Shown here: one piece after another, positions 6,977 through 30,692 of the stretch
How positions within the stretch are numbered: the stretch's first letter is position 1
Layout: every line of letters begins with the position of its first letter
DNA from: a virus
Length of the DNA: 43,647 bases
IMG/VR virus record: IMGVR_UViG_3300045808_000015
Direction: 5' to 3' (one strand)
Notes under the pieces: model-generated
The model's database searches: none
Seen by the model: only the letters and a program-made list of their open reading frames with translations
What the model was told of the DNA's origin: nothing
Translations under genes and position numbers: made by a program

Positions 6977-7303
6977 GCTTTTTATTTTAATAGCATAATC
7001 AAGGACAGTATCAATCTTATCTTTAAATGTAGTTTCTAGCATAGCAATAGCTTCAGTATTGAGCGAGATGTACCAAATTGTAGAAGACACGTTTTTACCG
7101 GAAATCATATCGTGCCTCATGAGTTCCCAGCAAACAGATTTTACGTCTTCGATACTCCATTCAGGCATAACAGTTTCATGTAATTTCTCAAGATTTCCAA
7201 ATTTCAACGATGTACTTCTATTAGCACCAGATTTTCTTTTTTGTAGATACTCTTTATACATCATAGACAATAAATATTTGGCTTCATTTGTTAGTTCATC
7301 CAT
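6959..7303 (-). CDS. Hypothetical protein (114 aa), opposite in orientation to the early operon
   Basis: RBS gtgaggtg. Own extended -10 (TGGTATACT, reverse complement of 7330..7338). Confidence 0.65.
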   Translation of the reverse strand: MDELTNEAKYLLSMMYKEYLQKRKSGANRSTSLKFGNLEKLHETVMPEWSIEDVKSVCWELMRHDMISGKNVSSTIWYISLNTEAIAMLETTFKDKIDTVLDYAIKIKSLIPFI

Positions 7304-8804: not shown

Positions 8805-9518
8805 ATGGAGATAATTAAAGCAGCTGATATTGATCGCGCTAGTAGTTTTTCCATTTTAATCTATGCACCGCCTGGCGGGGGTAAAACATATACGGCTAAT
8901 TACCTAAAAGGAAAAACACTTGTGATAGATATTGACCGCACTACAAACGTTTTAGCAGGAAATCCAAACATTGATATCGTTTATGCAGATTTAAATGATG
9001 TGGAGGTTGGAATGAAACGAATGTTAAGAGATATTCATGACAATTATTTAGACCAATATGACAATATCTTTTTTGATAACTTATCTGAATTCGAACAAGC
9101 ATGGCTAGCAGAGAAATCAAGACTATCAAAAACACGTGACGGTAAAGCAATGGGGATTCCTGAAATGGGCGATTATAACAAATTCTCATTTTACCTGCCT
9201 GACATGATTCGATACATCAATTCATGGAAAGGTGTAAACAAAGTTTTTACCGCTTGGGAAACACAAATTCAAATTCAATCACCGGGTGGTCAAATATTCA
9301 ATCAGTTTCATCCACAGATTCGAGAGAAGATTGTGAACAATATAATGGGCCTGATGAATATGGTTGGTCGTTTAATGCTCAATGAAGAAACAGGTAAAAG
9401 AGGGTTTTTATTAAAACGAACAGATCAAACCTATGCCAAAAATCAACTAGACGATCGAGAGTTTGCTCTGCAAGAGGAGTTGTTCGATATTGATGAAACT
9501 ATACGATTATCAGAATGA
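8805..9518 (+). CDS. AAA-family ATPase (Sak4/RecA-like recombination ATPase)
   Basis: Walker A IYAPPGGGKT. Position matches the conserved module. Confidence 0.75.
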   Translation: MEIIKAADIDRASSFSILIYAPPGGGKTYTANYLKGKTLVIDIDRTTNVLAGNPNIDIVYADLNDVEVGMKRMLRDIHDNYLDQYDNIFFDNLSEFEQAWLAEKSRLSKTRDGKAMGIPEMGDYNKFSFYLPDMIRYINSWKGVNKVFTAWETQIQIQSPGGQIFNQFHPQIREKIVNNIMGLMNMVGRLMLNEETGKRGFLLKRTDQTYAKNQLDDREFALQEELFDIDETIRLSE

Positions 9519-10842
9519 TCTAGTTAAGCGTGCTAAACAAGCTTATATCGAGGGATTTAAAGCTCCCTGTATTGTTTCGCCATGTGGCTCAGGGAAGTCG
9601 GTCATGGTCGCTGAAATCGCACGTATGACGACTTCAAAAGGCAATCGAGTTTTGTTTTTAGTTCATCGTCATGAACTTATAGATCAAATAAAAAAGACTT
9701 TCGAAACGATAGGTGTGGATTTAAAATTGGTTAATTTCGGAATGGTTCAAACGGTGGTAAGGCATCTTGAGACGATTAAAAAACCGCAATTAGTCATCAC
9801 TGATGAAAATCATCATGGATTAGCAGCATCGTATAGAAAAATCTATGATTATTTTTCGGACGTACCAAGACTAGGCTTTACTGCAACACCTATCCGATTA
9901 AATGGGAGTGGGTTAGGAGATGTTAACGATCTATTAATTGAAGGAGTATCAGCTAAATGGTTGATTGAAAATCATCGGTTGGCTCCTTATGAATATTATG
10001 CACCTAAATTAATCGATACTGCTGAATTGAAAAAAGCTTCAACTGGAGATTTTACGAAGAAATCAATGGATAAAGCAGTGAAGAATACAATTTATGGAGA
10101 TGTCTTGAAGCACTATCGAACGTTAGCAGACGGAGAACAAGCGATAGCGTACTGCCACAGTATTGAAGCAAGCAAACACACCAACGAGATATTCAATAAT
10201 GCTGGTTATAAAGCAGCACATATTGATGCAAAAACACCAAAAGATCAACGTGCAGACATTATTGAAGCATTCAGAAATCACGAAATTAAAATATTATGCA
10301 ATGTTGATTTGATTGGAGAAGGATTTGATGTCCCTGATTGTTCAACTGTGATTATGTTGAGACCTACTCAATCATTGTCACTATACATTCAACAATCGAT
10401 GAGAGGGATGCGTTACAGACCAGATAAAATGTCAATCATCATTGACCATGTGGGGAATGTGAATCGTTTTGGATTGCCTGATATGGATCGCGAGTGGAGT
10501 TTAGATAGCAAGAAAAAAGCGAACTCGGATAGCGATATTTCAATCGTTCAATGTCAGTTCTGTTTCGGAGCATACGAACGACCGAAGGGTGAGAATATTT
10601 GTCCGTATTGCGAAGAGGTACAGCCAATTGAAGAAAGAAAAAGTGAAATAGAGATTGATGAATCTGCCGAATTAATGAAAGTTGGAGAAACGAAAATTAC
10701 GTTGAATTTCGAGAATAACAAGTATTACAACATGACGGAAGATGAGGCTTCCACAGTTGAAGACTTATACGCAATCGCTAGAGCGAAAGGGTTTAAACCT
10801 GGTTGGGCATATATGGCAGCTAAAAGAAAGGGGATGTTGTAG
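9493..10842 (+). CDS. Superfamily-2 DEAD/DEAH-box helicase
   Basis: CGSGKS Walker A, TDENHH motif II, and a C-terminal CxxC..CxxC zinc ribbon. Start trimmed to MKLYDYQ. Confidence 0.85.
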   Translation: MKLYDYQNDLVKRAKQAYIEGFKAPCIVSPCGSGKSVMVAEIARMTTSKGNRVLFLVHRHELIDQIKKTFETIGVDLKLVNFGMVQTVVRHLETIKKPQLVITDENHHGLAASYRKIYDYFSDVPRLGFTATPIRLNGSGLGDVNDLLIEGVSAKWLIENHRLAPYEYYAPKLIDTAELKKASTGDFTKKSMDKAVKNTIYGDVLKHYRTLADGEQAIAYCHSIEASKHTNEIFNNAGYKAAHIDAKTPKDQRADIIEAFRNHEIKILCNVDLIGEGFDVPDCSTVIMLRPTQSLSLYIQQSMRGMRYRPDKMSIIIDHVGNVNRFGLPDMDREWSLDSKKKANSDSDISIVQCQFCFGAYERPKGENICPYCEEVQPIEERKSEIEIDESAELMKVGETKITLNFENNKYYNMTEDEASTVEDLYAIARAKGFKPGWAYMAAKRKGML

Positions 10843-26612: not shown

Positions 26613-27728
26613 ATGACTATGAAACTATCAAACGAATTCAAAACAATTCGTGACAACTTCTTAGCTGCTGTTAATAATAACGAGCCAGCTGAAAAACAAA
26701 ATGAACTATACGGTGCAATGCTCGATGAATTGCTGAACGAAGCAAAAAAACAAGCGCGTGCTGAGGCAGAAGGATTAATTGCTGAAAATCCGGCAGATGC
26801 GAAATTATCTGCTCGTGAGCGTAAATTTTTTAATGCTATCAGCACGGACGTCGGTTATAAAGAAGAAAAATTGTTGCCGCAAGAAACCATTGATCGAATC
26901 TTTGAGAACTTAACTACTGCCCATTCACTATTAGCTGAAATCGGTTTAGTAAACGCAGGGCTACGATTGAAATTCTTGAAATCTGAAACAAGTGGTGTTG
27001 CTGTATGGGGAAAAATCTTCGGCGAGATCAAAGGTCAGTTAGATGCAGCGTTCAGTGAAGAAGAAGCAATTCAAAGCAAATTGACGGCGTTTGTAGTTGT
27101 TCCTAAGGATTTGAAAGACTTCGGACCAGCTTGGATTGAATCATTTGTGGCTACTCAAATTGATGAAGCTTTTGCAGTGGCTTTAGAGGCTGCTTTTTTA
27201 TCAGGAGATGGAAATGACAAGCCGATTGGTTTAAATCGTCAAGTTCAAGAAGGTGTAGCCATTACTGGTGGTGTTTATCCAGAAAAAACTTCAATGGGCG
27301 ATTTAACATTTGCTGATTCAGCAACGACCGTTAAAGAACTAACGAATGTTTACAAACATCATTCAACTGACGAAAAAGGTCATGCAGTTGCTGTAGATGG
27401 AAAAGTTGTCATGGTAGTTAATCCTAGTGATGCTTGGGATGTCAAACGTCAATATACTTCATTAAATGCGCAAGGAGTATATGTAACTGCGTTACCTTAC
27501 AATTTGAAAATTGTTGAATCATTAGCGCAAGCAACTGAAAAAGTTTTAACGTTCGTAAACGGCCGATACGATGCATATATTGGCGGGGGCATTACTTTAC
27601 GTAAATACGATCAAACATTAGCGATTGAAGACATGGATTTATACACTGCTAAACAGTTTGCTTATGGGAAAGCTAAAGATGATAAGGCTGCTGCAGTTTG
27701 GGGATTAAAAGTATCCGAGGGAAAATAG
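26613..27728 (+). CDS. Major capsid protein (HK97 fold); possible -1 frameshift extension to 27790
   Basis: Position after the protease, and size. Slippery G_GGA_AAA at 27719..27725 is in phase, directly before the stop. Confidence 0.85.
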   Translation: MTMKLSNEFKTIRDNFLAAVNNNEPAEKQNELYGAMLDELLNEAKKQARAEAEGLIAENPADAKLSARERKFFNAISTDVGYKEEKLLPQETIDRIFENLTTAHSLLAEIGLVNAGLRLKFLKSETSGVAVWGKIFGEIKGQLDAAFSEEEAIQSKLTAFVVVPKDLKDFGPAWIESFVATQIDEAFAVALEAAFLSGDGNDKPIGLNRQVQEGVAITGGVYPEKTSMGDLTFADSATTVKELTNVYKHHSTDEKGHAVAVDGKVVMVVNPSDAWDVKRQYTSLNAQGVYVTALPYNLKIVESLAQATEKVLTFVNGRYDAYIGGGITLRKYDQTLAIEDMDLYTAKQFAYGKAKDDKAAAVWGLKVSEGK

Positions 27729-27805
27729 AGGCCCCCGCAGTTATTAATGTTGAACCGACAAGTGACGGAGCAACAATTGCACTGCGATAGAAAGGGGCGT
27801 TTCTA

Positions 27806-28108
27806 TTGGATGAGAAATTGCTAAAAGATTTCAAATCGCGGATGAGAATCTTTCATACTGCTGACGATGAAAACTTAGAAAATATTTTGAAAAGTTCAAA
27901 AGTAGCTGTTAAGCGATGGTGTGGGACTGACAATGTTTCAAATCCTGAAATTCGCGAACTCGTGATTGAACGCAGCCGATATGTCTACAATGATTCGTTA
28001 GAATTTTTCAATGATAACTTTCAATCGGAATTAATGGCTGTCTCTTTAGCAAATTATGAAGAGGGAGCTGATGGCGAAGATGAAGTACCAGAAACCCAAA
28101 GTCAATAA
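27806..28108 (+). CDS. gp6-like head-tail connector
   Basis: TTG start after aaagggg. Pattern LKDFKSRMRIFHTADDENLENILKSS. Confidence 0.6.
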   Translation: MDEKLLKDFKSRMRIFHTADDENLENILKSSKVAVKRWCGTDNVSNPEIRELVIERSRYVYNDSLEFFNDNFQSELMAVSLANYEEGADGEDEVPETQSQ

Positions 28109-28445
28109 CGGCGCTATGAGAACACCTGTTGAATTTTTTCAATATCGACCTCATAAAGGCCCTGAGCCAGGCGAGCAAGAGAAGCAGACCATTTTTAATT
28201 GTTTCGCTGAGATTTATAACCCCTCAATGAAAGACTTGGAAATTTTGAACTCAAAGACGACTAAACAAGCAGTAACTCTCACGATTAGAGATCCGCAAAC
28301 TGACTACATTGTTTCAAACAAGCATTATGTAGAGGTTATGGATAGGAGATATTCAGGCATTCGTTGGAACATCGTTGACGTTCGAAATGATTTCACTGAC
28401 AACCGATTCATCACGATTTTGTTAGCGGTGTATGACGATGAATAA
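28071..28445 (+). CDS. Head closure / head-tail adaptor protein
   Basis: Position. The start is ambiguous (28056, 28071 or 28080). Confidence 0.55.
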   Translation: MAKMKYQKPKVNNGAMRTPVEFFQYRPHKGPEPGEQEKQTIFNCFAEIYNPSMKDLEILNSKTTKQAVTLTIRDPQTDYIVSNKHYVEVMDRRYSGIRWNIVDVRNDFTDNRFITILLAVYDDE

Positions 28446-28842
28446 TGTTGATTTTAAAGGTGTAAATGAAACGCTACGTGAGATGGAAAAACGTTTAGGG
28501 TCCACTAAAACACGAAAAATTGCTCGTGAAGCGGTTGACGAAGGGGCTTCTGATGTTGAGGAACAAATGAAATGGGCAATGATGTCTTTTAAAGACACTG
28601 GCGCTACTATCGATGAAGTCGTCAAAAAGAAAGCAACGTACCGCAATGAAAACACCGAAGCTGAAATTGGCTGGAACGGTCCAAAACAGCGGTATCGAAT
28701 TATCCATTTGAACGAGTGGGGATACACCAGAAATGGTCGTCAAATAAAGCCGCGTGGATTTGGAGTAATAACAAAATCACTGAAATCATCTGAAAAAATT
28801 TACTTTAATACAGTAGCTAGGGAGTTGAGGAATAAGTTATGA
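28432..28842 (+). CDS. HK97 gp10-like protein
   Basis: Position and the FKDTGAT motif. Confidence 0.6.
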   Translation: MTMNNVDFKGVNETLREMEKRLGSTKTRKIAREAVDEGASDVEEQMKWAMMSFKDTGATIDEVVKKKATYRNENTEAEIGWNGPKQRYRIIHLNEWGYTRNGRQIKPRGFGVITKSLKSSEKIYFNTVARELRNKL

Positions 28843-29249
28843 AAGATATGTTGATGACAATTTATGAGGCACTATGCTCAAACTCTTATATCCACGATAT
28901 GACTTACAACTCTGATTCAGAAGAGTACAGGATTAAGTTTTACGAGCAACCTGAAACGGCTGACAAAACAGGTGCGTTTATCACAATTCGACCTGCAGAT
29001 GTACCGAACGAAGCATTCCACGGGAGCGATAAAGAGCTTTCTATCGAACACCTGATACAAATTGATGTGGAGTCAAAATACAGAGCGACATGCAAACAAA
29101 TGCAGTATGAAATTAAAAAAGAGATGAAGAAGCTTGGTTTTGGCCAAGTGAGCGGCCAAGGTTTAGACGAATATTTCTCGGAGACTAGACGTTATGTAGA
29201 CGCTCGACGATATGACGGGAATACACGAATTTACGATACACAATATTAA
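28839..29249 (+). CDS. Tail completion/terminator-like protein
   Basis: Position only. Confidence 0.45.
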   Translation: MKDMLMTIYEALCSNSYIHDMTYNSDSEEYRIKFYEQPETADKTGAFITIRPADVPNEAFHGSDKELSIEHLIQIDVESKYRATCKQMQYEIKKEMKKLGFGQVSGQGLDEYFSETRRYVDARRYDGNTRIYDTQY

Positions 29250-29267
29250 AACAGAATAACAGGAATT

Positions 29268-29296
29268 AAGACACGAAAACTCGTGTCTTTTTTTGT
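29268..29296 (+). terminator. Intrinsic terminator just upstream of the major tail gene
   Basis: Stem gacacga/tcgtgtc, loop aaac, followed by tttttttg. Confidence 0.65.
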
Positions 29297-29321
29297 TGTC
29301 AAAATTAGGAGGAAATAAATT

Positions 29322-29906
29322 ATGACTTTAGTCGGATTTAAAAAAATGACAATCGGAATTTTTGATAAGGACGGTAAAATTCCAACAGCTAATCAATTTG
29401 TTATTGAAGGTAAACAAGATAAAGGGGCCACTGTATCCGCTGAAATTAGCGGCCTATCAAAAGAAGCTACAAAGGTATATGGATCAAATATTGCTTACTA
29501 TATCTCGCAAAAAGGAACAGGGGACATTTCTGCAACGTTTGGATTGTTAGATTTGCCAGAAGATCTAAATGACAAGATTCTTGGTTACAAAACTGATGCA
29601 AACAAGATCAGCTTTCTTGGCGAAGACACGGAGCCGCCATATTGCGCATTGCTTATGGAGTCAGAAGATCTCGGTGGGGATACAGCTATGTTGACAATCT
29701 TTAAAGGTAAGTTTAGTCGTGAAGCTATCAATTTGAATACTACAACAAATGAAGCCTTTGAACCTGAAGCAGAGGAGTATGTATTTTCTGCAATTGCCAA
29801 TGATGCTGATGGCGATGCAAAGGGGCAATCGGTTGCTAAATATGTTGGAGATGAAGAGGCGTCAATTACAGCAATGCGCACAATGGCTTTTCCAGCGGGG
29901 GAGTAA
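29322..29906 (+). CDS. Major tail (tube) protein, phi13-type; possible -1 frameshift extension to 29968
   Basis: Position, size and N-terminal pattern. A GGGGG run at 29897..29901 precedes the stop. Confidence 0.8.
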   Translation: MTLVGFKKMTIGIFDKDGKIPTANQFVIEGKQDKGATVSAEISGLSKEATKVYGSNIAYYISQKGTGDISATFGLLDLPEDLNDKILGYKTDANKISFLGEDTEPPYCALLMESEDLGGDTAMLTIFKGKFSREAINLNTTTNEAFEPEAEEYVFSAIANDADGDAKGQSVAKYVGDEEASITAMRTMAFPAGE

Positions 29907-29972
29907 CAAGCCCAGTCGTTGGGACAGTTACCCCGACGACGACAGGGGCAACAATCGCATTAAGTTAGGAGA

Positions 29973-30320
29973 ATGAGTGTGGTAGATACATTTAGAATTT
30001 ATAAAAAAGATGGAACAAAAGTAGTGGAGGGCACAAGCCCTCTTTCTATCACTGGTATTGCAGCAAATACACAAGTAGCAAAGGGAGACTATCAAGCAAC
30101 TCGGTTGGTTAATGATGTTGAATCAATGAAAGTTGATATCCCAGCATTTAAGACATTGCCCGAACAAGAGCCGGAAACACCTAGCTTTGATCCTGAAGGA
30201 GATGTAAAGCCAACAAATGCGAATACCGTTGAAGAAATAAAAGCATGGTTGACAGCACATGGTATTGATTACACCGGAAAGACACTTAAATCAGATTTGC
30301 TTGCATTAGTACCAGCGTAG
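29973..30320 (+). CDS. Ig/FN3-like beta domain + Pro/Glu linker + HeH (SAP-like) motif protein
   Basis: FRIYKKDGTKVVEG..SPLSITGI..GDYQATRLVN..KVDIPAFKT has an FN3-like strand pattern. The C-terminal TVEEIKAWLTAHGIDYTGKTLKSDLLALV is HeH-like. The start may be the GTG at 29979. Confidence 0.55.
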   Translation: MSVVDTFRIYKKDGTKVVEGTSPLSITGIAANTQVAKGDYQATRLVNDVESMKVDIPAFKTLPEQEPETPSFDPEGDVKPTNANTVEEIKAWLTAHGIDYTGKTLKSDLLALVPA

Positions 30321-30380: not shown

Positions 30381-30692
30381 ATGGCACAAGTTCGAATTGA
30401 ATTAAAAAATAAAAAAGGCAAAAAAGAAGTCTTTGAGAAATTAGAAACAACCGGGAAAGACTATCGTTTAGCTTTGCAAACAATTAAAAAATTAAATGCA
30501 GAAAAAATCATGCTGTGGGATCAGTTAGATATTTATTTAGCTTTTGCAGTGGAAATTTTCAAAGCAGACAAATTGACTACAGATCAGATTTTGGAAGGAT
30601 TACCTTCTGAAAAAACTCGGGAAACTTTGGATGATTTATTAGGGCAAGTAATGGGAATTGAAGATAATCCTGATCCAGATGCAAAAAAGTAA
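30381..30692 (+). CDS. Tail assembly chaperone (G-like)
   Basis: Position before the tape measure gene. Ends in the slippery A_AAA_AAG. Confidence 0.8.
   Translation: MAQVRIELKNKKGKKEVFEKLETTGKDYRLALQTIKKLNAEKIMLWDQLDIYLAFAVEIFKADKLTTDQILEGLPSEKTRETLDDLLGQVMGIEDNPDPDAKK

Follow-up and report, generated by a model that had tools for sequence, protein, structure and literature searches.

The major capsid and major tail (tube) protein genes of a siphovirus prophage of Enterococcus, IMG/VR virus record IMGVR_UViG_3300045808_000015, both end at slippery runs beyond which the -1 frame encodes a short peptide of the same kind. We propose, with a probability of roughly 0.7, that these peptides are frameshift-made tags that complete a split fibronectin type III (FN3) domain: each tag would form a docking hairpin on capsid or tube subunits, and the product of the gene after the tube gene, here termed the partner, would bind it by fold complementation. 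The record is a 43,647-nt stretch, referred to below as the window, and all coordinates refer to it. The region under study is the head-to-tail module of the prophage, with the gene order prohead protease, major capsid protein, head-tail connector genes, tail terminator, major tail/tube protein, an open reading frame (ORF) of 113-115 amino acids (aa), tail assembly chaperone, and a 2076-aa tape measure protein. A megablast search of the region against 50,697 deposited phage records gave no match, and 99% identical prophage copies are found in Enterococcus viikkiensis LMG 26075 and E. hermanniensis DSM 17122. Our comparison set consisted of 114 related loci from bacterial genomes and IMG/VR, retrieved with the capsid protein. 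Gene ends and tags were located by direct reading and translation, and tags were scored with a hidden Markov model (HMM):

26613..27728, + strand: major capsid protein gene, 371 aa, HK97 type (phrog_10, E=1e-58; PF05065)
27719..27725, + strand: capsid -1 slip site G_GGA_AAA, with the stop codon TAG 27726..27728 directly after it (direct reading)
27725..27790, + strand: capsid tag, -1 frame (GK)IEAPAVINVEPTSDGATIALR, followed by TAG 27788..27790 (translation; tag HMM E=1e-6)
29322..29906, + strand: major tail (tube) protein gene, 194 aa (phrog_88, E=5e-44; PF04630 Phage_TTP_1)
29897..29903, + strand: tube -1 slip site G_GGG_GAG, with the stop codon TAA 29904..29906 next (direct reading)
29903..29968, + strand: tube tag, -1 frame (GG)VTSPVVGTVTPTTTGATIALS, followed by TAG 29966..29968 (translation; tag HMM E=7e-9)
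29967..29971, + strand: partner Shine-Dalgarno sequence AGGAG, overlapping the TAG stop of the tube tag, 7 nt 5' of GTG 29979 (direct reading)
29979..30320, + strand: partner gene, 113 aa when counted from GTG 29979, with ATG 29973 as the start of the mechanical ORF (phrog_341)

The capsid ORF ends GAG GGA AAA TAG, with the heptamer in X_XXY_YYZ phase and ..KVSEGKIEAPAVINVEPTSDGATIALR as the predicted junction peptide across the slip, and the tube ORF ends GCG GGG GAG TAA, with a G5 run at 29897..29901. In both genes, the stop codon lies directly 3' of the slip site. Both -1 tails are 21 codons long and end in GATIAL(R/S)-TAG. They are identical at 11 of 21 positions, an identity reached in 0 of 1,000,000 shuffles, and 5 of the 11 identical residues are encoded by different codons, including gga/ggg, att/atc, and ctg/tta within GATIAL. 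A first-pass annotation of the window had described the slip sites, tails, coordinates, and translations, all of which hold to the base; its 11/21 alignment and its synonymous codon differences within GATIAL were likewise confirmed.

The same annotation read the codon pattern as selection on the peptide, and the related loci bear this out. Among loci of the Enterococcus-type clade, an open -1 frame of exactly 21 codons encodes a conserved peptide in 14 of 14 capsid genes and 16 of 16 tube genes, and the +1 frame is mostly closed after 1-6 codons. Thirteen related loci have the capsid slip site unchanged (L061 differs, with G_GGA_AAG, as does L063, with G_GGG_GAG), and the tube slip site is GCG GGG GAG/AAG in 15 (L053 has ATA AAG TAA). 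The pooled pairwise ratio of nonsynonymous to synonymous change (pN/pS) is 0.69 for the capsid tag versus 1.3 when the same nucleotides are read in the other frames, and 0.38 for the tube tag versus 0.9-1.2 in the other frames; taken together, this excess of synonymous change amounts to 0.38-0.69 versus 0.9-1.3. Across four independent sets, the tag frame gives values of 0.28-0.69 and the other frames 0.9-1.8. Capsid and tube tails from one genome share a mean identity of 0.60, compared with 0.29 between clades. As judged from these codon patterns, the tags are coding sequence and are under purifying selection in the relatives.

Tails of the same family are reached by other routes in other phages. 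In prophages of coagulase-negative Staphylococcus, whose capsid protein is 71% identical, both genes end ...CCC TAA/TAG and continue as +1 tails, which read (N/S)xPQNVEVxANAKSASITAD in the capsid and KxPQNVEVxANSKSASISAE in the tube. Kurthia prophages and S. aureus Triavirus (phiSLT, phage 47) have same-family +1 tails on both genes, which end CCC AGC TAA. In phage 47 (L213, 150-290 and 2340-2470), the capsid and tube genes end with an identical cassette, TTA CCC AGC TAA, and their +1 tails, AKPQKVNVTAKAKSAVISAE and ANPQNVEVAVNSKSATVSAE, respectively, are not annotated in RefSeq. The capsid gene of Efquatrovirus SANTOR1 ends CCC TAG, with the +1 tail STPPVVGQVTTTETSATIELS. For the tsh genes of Listeria phages, CCC_stop has been documented as the +1 site (PMC5009743). 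In phiEf11, the tail is the in-frame C terminus of the tube protein, and the tail of Romulus_085 is likewise in frame. All of these tails align with one another, giving the consensus xxPxxVxVTPxxxSATIxLx. Three recoding solutions for one peptide are strong evidence that the peptide itself matters.

The partner ORF reads MVDTFRIYKKDGTKVVEGTSPLSITGIAANTQVAKGDYQATRLVNDVESMKVDIPAFKT, followed by a linker and an HeH domain. Its N-terminal domain of ~60 aa is predicted to form FN3 strands C-G, and the HeH match (PF12949) spans residues 85-113 of the 115-aa ORF at a sub-threshold Pfam E value of 3e-4. Homologs of the partner are 113 aa long and start M-(V/P/A)-(D/E)-T-F; partners always have their own Shine-Dalgarno sequence and start codon, and their first strand is C. 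This family, phrog_341, is often annotated as "major tail protein" although it is no tube protein (mislabeled GenBank entries include phiSLT orf151, phiEf11_0016, SANTOR1_0030, and Romulus_086), and the partner domain is present in ~500 phage records.

Tags and partners occur together. HMM and tblastn searches place both in 32 loci and neither in 82, with no locus having the tag alone. The HMM called two loci "partner only," both from Kurthia, and divergent tags are visible there by eye; in Kurthia, the partner lies directly 3' of the capsid tag, with a TAATG overlap. Capsid proteins that are 93-96% identical to that of the window and end ...PEG-TAG have neither tag nor partner (L039, L045-51, L054), and L083 and L044 lack the capsid tag and keep the tube tag and partner. 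The types are also matched: tags ending "...IALS/IELS" pair with "TF(K/R)IYKK" partners, and "...SISAE" tags pair with "TLKVYKG" partners.

By eye, the tails resemble FN3 strands A-B (P-x-x-V-x-V ... S-A-x-I-S-W), with the other five strands in the ORF after the tube gene. A phmmer search with the fused tag and partner against 1.84 billion representatives gave 83 hits, most of which start at their own residue 2-4 and cover positions 27-86 only. Unsplit homologs (P0145, P0166, P0189, P0193, and P0196) are single chains covering fusion positions 4-86, with E values down to 1e-14. The window tag and partner align with these intact homologs over the full length, with 32-50% identity, and the junction between the two genes maps to the B-C loop; the capsid tag aligns with the A-B region of the homologs. 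Among the best 120 database homologs, the partner part of the fused profile is covered and nothing else. In the Kurthia partner, an intact FN3 domain immediately follows the truncated one.

An AlphaFold2 model of the tube tag fused to the partner N-terminal domain has a predicted local distance difference test score (pLDDT) of 92.9 and a predicted template modeling score of 0.80, with tag residues 7-14 and 17-23 forming strands at pLDDT 84-97. The input alignment had 139 rows, with the tag present in two (the window rows), and the fusion modeled without an alignment gave a pLDDT of 54. The predicted fusion is a seven-strand beta-sandwich of FN3 topology. In a Foldseek search of the PDB, almost all of the top 50 matches are FN3 domains, with template modeling (TM) scores of 0.5-0.7 over the whole model, 0.6-0.7 among the top hits, and probabilities of ~1.0. 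A profile search of PDB sequences returned a structural protein of phage Tuc2009 and the FN3 of fibronectin. With hhalign, the match to FN10 has E=5.5e-4 over strands E-F, and the comparison with a tenascin FN3 was insignificant. The 89-aa relatives are named "fibronectin type III domain-containing protein" by NCBI. On this modeling, the capsid and tube tags appear to be strands A-B of an FN3 domain whose strands C-G come from the gene after the tube gene. The extension itself is not a complete autonomous immunoglobulin (Ig)-like domain of about 80-100 residues; it has 21 residues, corresponding to strands A-B. The first-pass annotation had proposed that a frameshift adds one short tag to a fraction of both proteins. 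The comparative data support a shared, frameshift-made tag, but its standing as a self-contained element gives way to a predicted part of an FN3 domain: the tail would be short, shared, and end where it does because it supplies the first two FN3 strands, which the product of the next gene completes.

Virion mass data are available for related phages. Stverakova et al. (2018) acquired MALDI-TOF spectra of intact Staphylococcus phages (PMC5923470). In virions of Triavirus 3A/42E/47, a tube protein of 23,295 Da and an "Ig-like domain" protein of 15,871 Da were found at their predicted masses (PMC5923470); our recalculation from the phage 47 genome, without the initiator Met, gives 23,294.7 and 15,871.2 Da. 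The 15,871-Da protein is the partner, which makes the partner an abundant, separate virion polypeptide in Triavirus. A signal at m/z 25,208 is common to six Triavirus phages and was left unassigned by the authors (PMC5923470). For the phage 47 +1 product ...GSLP-ANPQNVEVAVNSKSATVSAE, we calculate 25,204.7 Da, and in our own reading the signal fits the tube protein plus tag. Kayvirus K/812 virions contain proteins of 23,069, 17,718, and 7,818 Da (PMC5923470). In a Kayvirus-like contig, a protein ending in the tag has a mass of 23,068.1 Da and one with the layout C-G, Big_2, tag has a mass of ~17.7 kDa, and a bare 75-aa C-G protein from the database has a mass of 7,817.5 Da. Masses of separate chains such as these favor a non-covalent association over an isopeptide link.

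Downstream of each slip site, we predicted an RNA hairpin, listed here with its minimum free energy (MFE):

27731..27798, + strand: predicted RNA hairpin, 5 nt 3' of the capsid slip site (MFE -28.2 kcal/mol, z=-3.3, 0/200 shuffles)
29910..29949, + strand: predicted RNA hairpin, 6 nt 3' of the tube slip site (MFE -27.5 kcal/mol for 29904..29990, z=-3.6)

The capsid hairpin is largely kept in 8 relatives, with compensatory changes in 3 pairs, and we infer that it acts as a frameshift stimulator. The tube hairpin has a consensus in 9 relatives, with compensatory change in 2 pairs.

We therefore envisage the following sequence of events only as a proposal. A minority of ribosomes would slip into the -1 frame at G_GGA_AAA and G_GGG_G just 5' of the stop, adding 21 residues, probably helped by the downstream hairpin and a slow stop codon. 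Tagged subunits would co-assemble with untagged ones and expose the A-B hairpin. The partner alone would be an incomplete beta-sandwich, missing two of one sheet's three strands, and would dock non-covalently on the A-B hairpin of tagged capsid and tube subunits, so that its HeH domain is displayed. One decoration gene would thereby serve both head and tail, with frameshift efficiency setting the displayed copy number. The displayed HeH domain would probably adhere to a polyanionic surface polymer.

Several points weigh against this proposal. What AlphaFold2 modeled is an artificial fusion in a single chain, which speaks to compatibility, not to binding in trans. The PDB profile links to FN3 are weak, at E values of 0.003-0.1, with FN3 chains at 0.03-0.1, and relaxing the cutoff to E<=10 gives no match of the Pfam fn3 model to the partner or the fusions. 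Nor is G_GGG_GAG at the end of the tube gene a canonical tandem-slip heptamer; since perfect re-pairing is possible for the P-site codon only, it would be a one-tRNA slip. Hairpin covariation is thin (2-3 pairs), and the co-occurrence counts are not phylogenetically independent. The 25,208 signal was assigned to the tagged tube protein by us and not by the authors of the spectra. For the window phage itself, frameshifting is a prediction from nucleotide sequence.

Could the frameshift-made tags act alone, as a short spacer or an inter-subunit contact, with the downstream protein independent of them? Tag expression and selection on the tag need no partner, and in L080/L081 the tube has no tag while the partner gene still follows the tube gene. 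We regard this explanation as improbable: the capsid of L080/L081 does have a tag, co-occurrence of tag and partner is strict, and tag type co-varies with partner type. Moreover, unsplit single-chain domains can be aligned with the fusion from one end to the other, the break coming in a loop, and the FN3 model of the fusion is of high confidence. Complete frameshift-appended domains are found at the same place in relatives (HeH in L007/L077/L079/L009; Big_2 in L078 and in the tubes of L007, phiN315, and A118 tsh), which would suit the tails being untranslated relics of a once-complete FN3 extension broken by a stop, with incidental slippery runs. Relics would decay, however, and here no member has lost the open frame, whose pN/pS is far lower than that of the other frames. 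The architecture is also seen again in distant phage groups, realized by -1, by +1, or in frame; no remnant of a partner adjoins the capsid tag, which nevertheless tracks the tube tag found in its genome; and the 25,208-Da Triavirus signal fits an expressed, tagged tube protein. A relic origin is thus quite unlikely in our view.

We attach very little weight to two further explanations, which concern how tag and partner are joined. In one, the tube tag and partner are linked by a second recoding event (bypassing, or +1 over the TAG) into a full FN3-HeH extension, leaving the capsid tail as a by-product. Only ~10 nt separate the tube-tag stop from the partner start in the window, and the Staphylococcus partner is in the same frame as the +1 tag; but two stops lie between tag and partner in Staphylococcus, and the window partner is in a different frame from the tag, with an intervening stop in that frame. 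A good Shine-Dalgarno sequence and start codon precede every partner, MALDI places the partner at its exact stand-alone mass in Triavirus and Kayvirus virions, and capsid tags, as well as in-frame tags with separate partners (phiEf11, Romulus), are left unexplained. The other, which we find equally hard to credit, is a covalent, isopeptide-linked pair like SpyTag/SpyCatcher, whose layout of a short strand-forming tag and an incomplete Ig-like domain is similar. No Lys, Asn, or Asp position is conserved across tag types, the window tube tag has none of these residues, and the partner and tube proteins of Staphylococcus virions are at unmodified single masses.

Around the split-FN3 arrangement, the cargo of the partner varies. 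The window partner ends in HeH, those of Staphylococcus, phiEf11, L061, and L063 in Big_2, and that of P0055 in threonine-rich repeats, and no C-terminal cargo is present in L080/81, SANTOR1, or Romulus_087. A second tag is found at the C terminus of the L032 partner, of the 89-aa FN3 proteins, and of Romulus_086. In Silviavirus Romulus, three consecutive structural genes, Romulus_085, 086, and 087, encode a protein ending in the tag, a protein with the layout C-G, Big_2, tag, and a bare C-G protein, respectively. Each gene breaks the FN3 at the B-C loop, in Romulus (L122 2344-3739) and in L212 (2318-3725). The gene layout suggests the arrangement expected of a chain held together by successive complementation, and we speculate that the Romulus/Kayvirus proteins might be the "neck whiskers" of phage 812. 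The cryo-electron microscopy papers dealing with the neck of phage 812 and with Brochothrix phage NF5 make no mention of tag and partner proteins.

Tag-less relatives of the window capsid often use a frameshift at this position to add an entire HeH or Big_2 domain. HeH is reached by -1 slippage at TCG GGG GAG TAA or G_GGA_AAC in loci including L007, L077, L079 (~7135), and L009/L086 (~7126), and by +1 at CCC TAA in L095 (~7144); L078 reaches Big_2 via -1, and L029 belongs to the same group. In S. aureus phiN315 (L117 7518-7790), an unannotated 316-nt gap after the tube gene is an open -1 frame encoding a complete Big_2 that is missing from RefSeq. Judging by these gene ends, the capsid C terminus is a hot spot for the exchange of recoded modules. 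Because whole-domain frameshift extensions occur at the same position, the split system looks like a second means by which these modules are displayed. Paired short -1 tails are also present in L024 (Pediococcus stilesii; ~7060-7120 and 9241-9610), with ITAPTVGTAKVGAAKLTE on the capsid, LTSPTVGTAKVGATKLTE on the tube, and slip sites G_GGA_AAA and G_GGA_AAC, and L075 has the paired tails IEPIAGKAKVGKAKLKERGG and VTPKVGTAKVGDSKLTYQA (7138-7200 and 9283-9632). Neither locus has an FN3 partner; instead, a collagen-like ORF of G-X-Y repeats follows the tube gene, and tails and ORF may be an analogous tag/partner pair of another fold.

We lean toward a broader reading, in which many Firmicutes phages use a natural two-gene split-FN3 "tag and catcher." Users would include Enterococcus prophages, Efquatrovirus, S. 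aureus Triavirus, and the Staphylococcus myoviruses Kayvirus and Silviavirus. A hairpin of ~20 residues, encoded in frame or by -1/+1 frameshifting on capsid, tube, or other virion proteins, would capture interchangeable C-G decoration proteins with HeH, Big_2, mucin-like repeats, or no cargo, and proteins carrying both halves could daisy-chain (Romulus_085 > 086 > 087).

Other features of the operon adjoin these sites. The TAG of the capsid tag is in frame with the next gene, a head-tail connector (PF05135) starting at TTG 27806, and lies 5 codons 5' of it (27788..27806). Read-through of this stop into the next gene was rejected, given that the shared frame lacks conservation and that a separate Shine-Dalgarno sequence and start serve the next gene; we judge the shared frame to be coincidental. 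Transcriptional slippage at the tails was ruled out, the runs being merely A4 and G5, as was assembly error, since the features recur in >100 independent contigs. The tail assembly chaperone gene (30381..30692, PF23857) ends GCA AAA AAG TAA (30683..30692), a classic A_AAA_AAG -1 heptamer abutting the stop, and its -1 frame runs on as KKVTPEEAEEMYLELCRELTKQG... to 30871, a G/GT-type fusion. Together with the capsid and tube sites, this heptamer gives the operon three -1 sites, each directly 5' of a stop.

Frameshifts of Listeria phages A118 and A500 were reportedly described by Dorscht et al. in 2009. Capsid and tube genes of one phage are likewise recoded at their extreme 3' ends in A118, A500, and PSA (Cps-L, Tsh-L). 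That such 3'-end frameshifts are documented in Listeria phages, as the first-pass annotation had stated, is correct: A118 cps is listed as decoded with -1 frameshifting (PMC5009743). Read from the genome, its 3' end is GCG GGA AAC TAA, and G_GGA_AAC-TAA is the same kind of site as that of the window capsid; A118 tsh CCC_TGA, in turn, matches the CCC_TAA sites of the Staphylococcus relatives. The A118 capsid extension is an HeH domain, a module also found on the window partner. In A118, however, complete and mutually unrelated domains (HeH on the capsid, Big_2 on the tube) are covalently fused, whereas the window has the same 21-residue fragment twice and the module on a separate protein. In Bacillus phage SPP1, a +1 frameshift at the tube gene end extends the tube protein with an FN3 (gp17.1*), so that a fraction of tube subunits displays this domain (PMC8718954). 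The SPP1 extension holds the whole FN3, whereas the window tag comprises only A-B, with C-G from another gene, and is also found on the capsid.

In chaperone-usher pili, an incomplete Ig-like fold is completed by strands of another polypeptide (donor-strand complementation). By likeness, head-to-tail chaining could occur among the proteins that combine a truncated domain with a tag at the C terminus (Romulus_086, the L032 partner, and the 89-aa FN3 proteins). The pilus proteins are an unrelated family that lacks the C-terminal G strand, whereas the window partner lacks two N-terminal strands; the window system has no chaperone or usher, its donor would be a virion shell or tube protein, and complementation is the inferred element. 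SpyTag/SpyCatcher is an engineered split of CnaB2 joined by a covalent isopeptide bond. It, too, rebuilds one fold from a short tag and an incomplete Ig-like domain and is modular and transferable between carriers, but it has another fold and is covalent, whereas the window proteins have no conserved reactive residues and the masses in related phages are those of separate chains. Ig-like decoration domains of phages are said to include T4 Hoc and the lambda gpV C-terminal domain, and a survey by Fraser et al. reportedly covers such domains. Ig-like domains on phage capsids and tails, often added by frameshift, are thought to aid weak adhesion to surfaces (PMC5009743). Known decorations of this type are contiguous with a structural protein or bound as whole folded proteins, whereas the domain proposed for the window would be divided between two genes. 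Full-text searches and reviews, with most subscription journals outside their coverage, returned neither a split FN3 domain nor short shared tags. Recoding at the 3' ends of cps and tsh, a frameshifted FN3 on the tube, and completion of an Ig-like fold in trans are known singly; we did not find their combination described, that is, one domain spread over two genes with its small half recoded onto two structural proteins.

Ig-like domains appended to phage heads and tails by frameshifting are a well-known curiosity. To our knowledge, it has never been clear why some extensions measure only ~20 residues, nor why many Gram-positive phages have small "major tail protein" or "Ig-like" genes after the tube gene. 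A split FN3 domain would explain both. Gene callers systematically miss the tags and mislabel the partner as "major tail protein." The system would provide a ready-made non-covalent display handle for phage engineering, and its presence in the therapeutic genera Kayvirus, Silviavirus, and Efquatrovirus means that it could affect adhesion and host range. If the proposal is true, it would be a new principle of virion assembly, with one exchangeable decoration gene aimed at two unrelated structural proteins through a shared recoded hairpin whose copy number is set by ribosome slippage, a genetic dial for the density of head and tail decoration.

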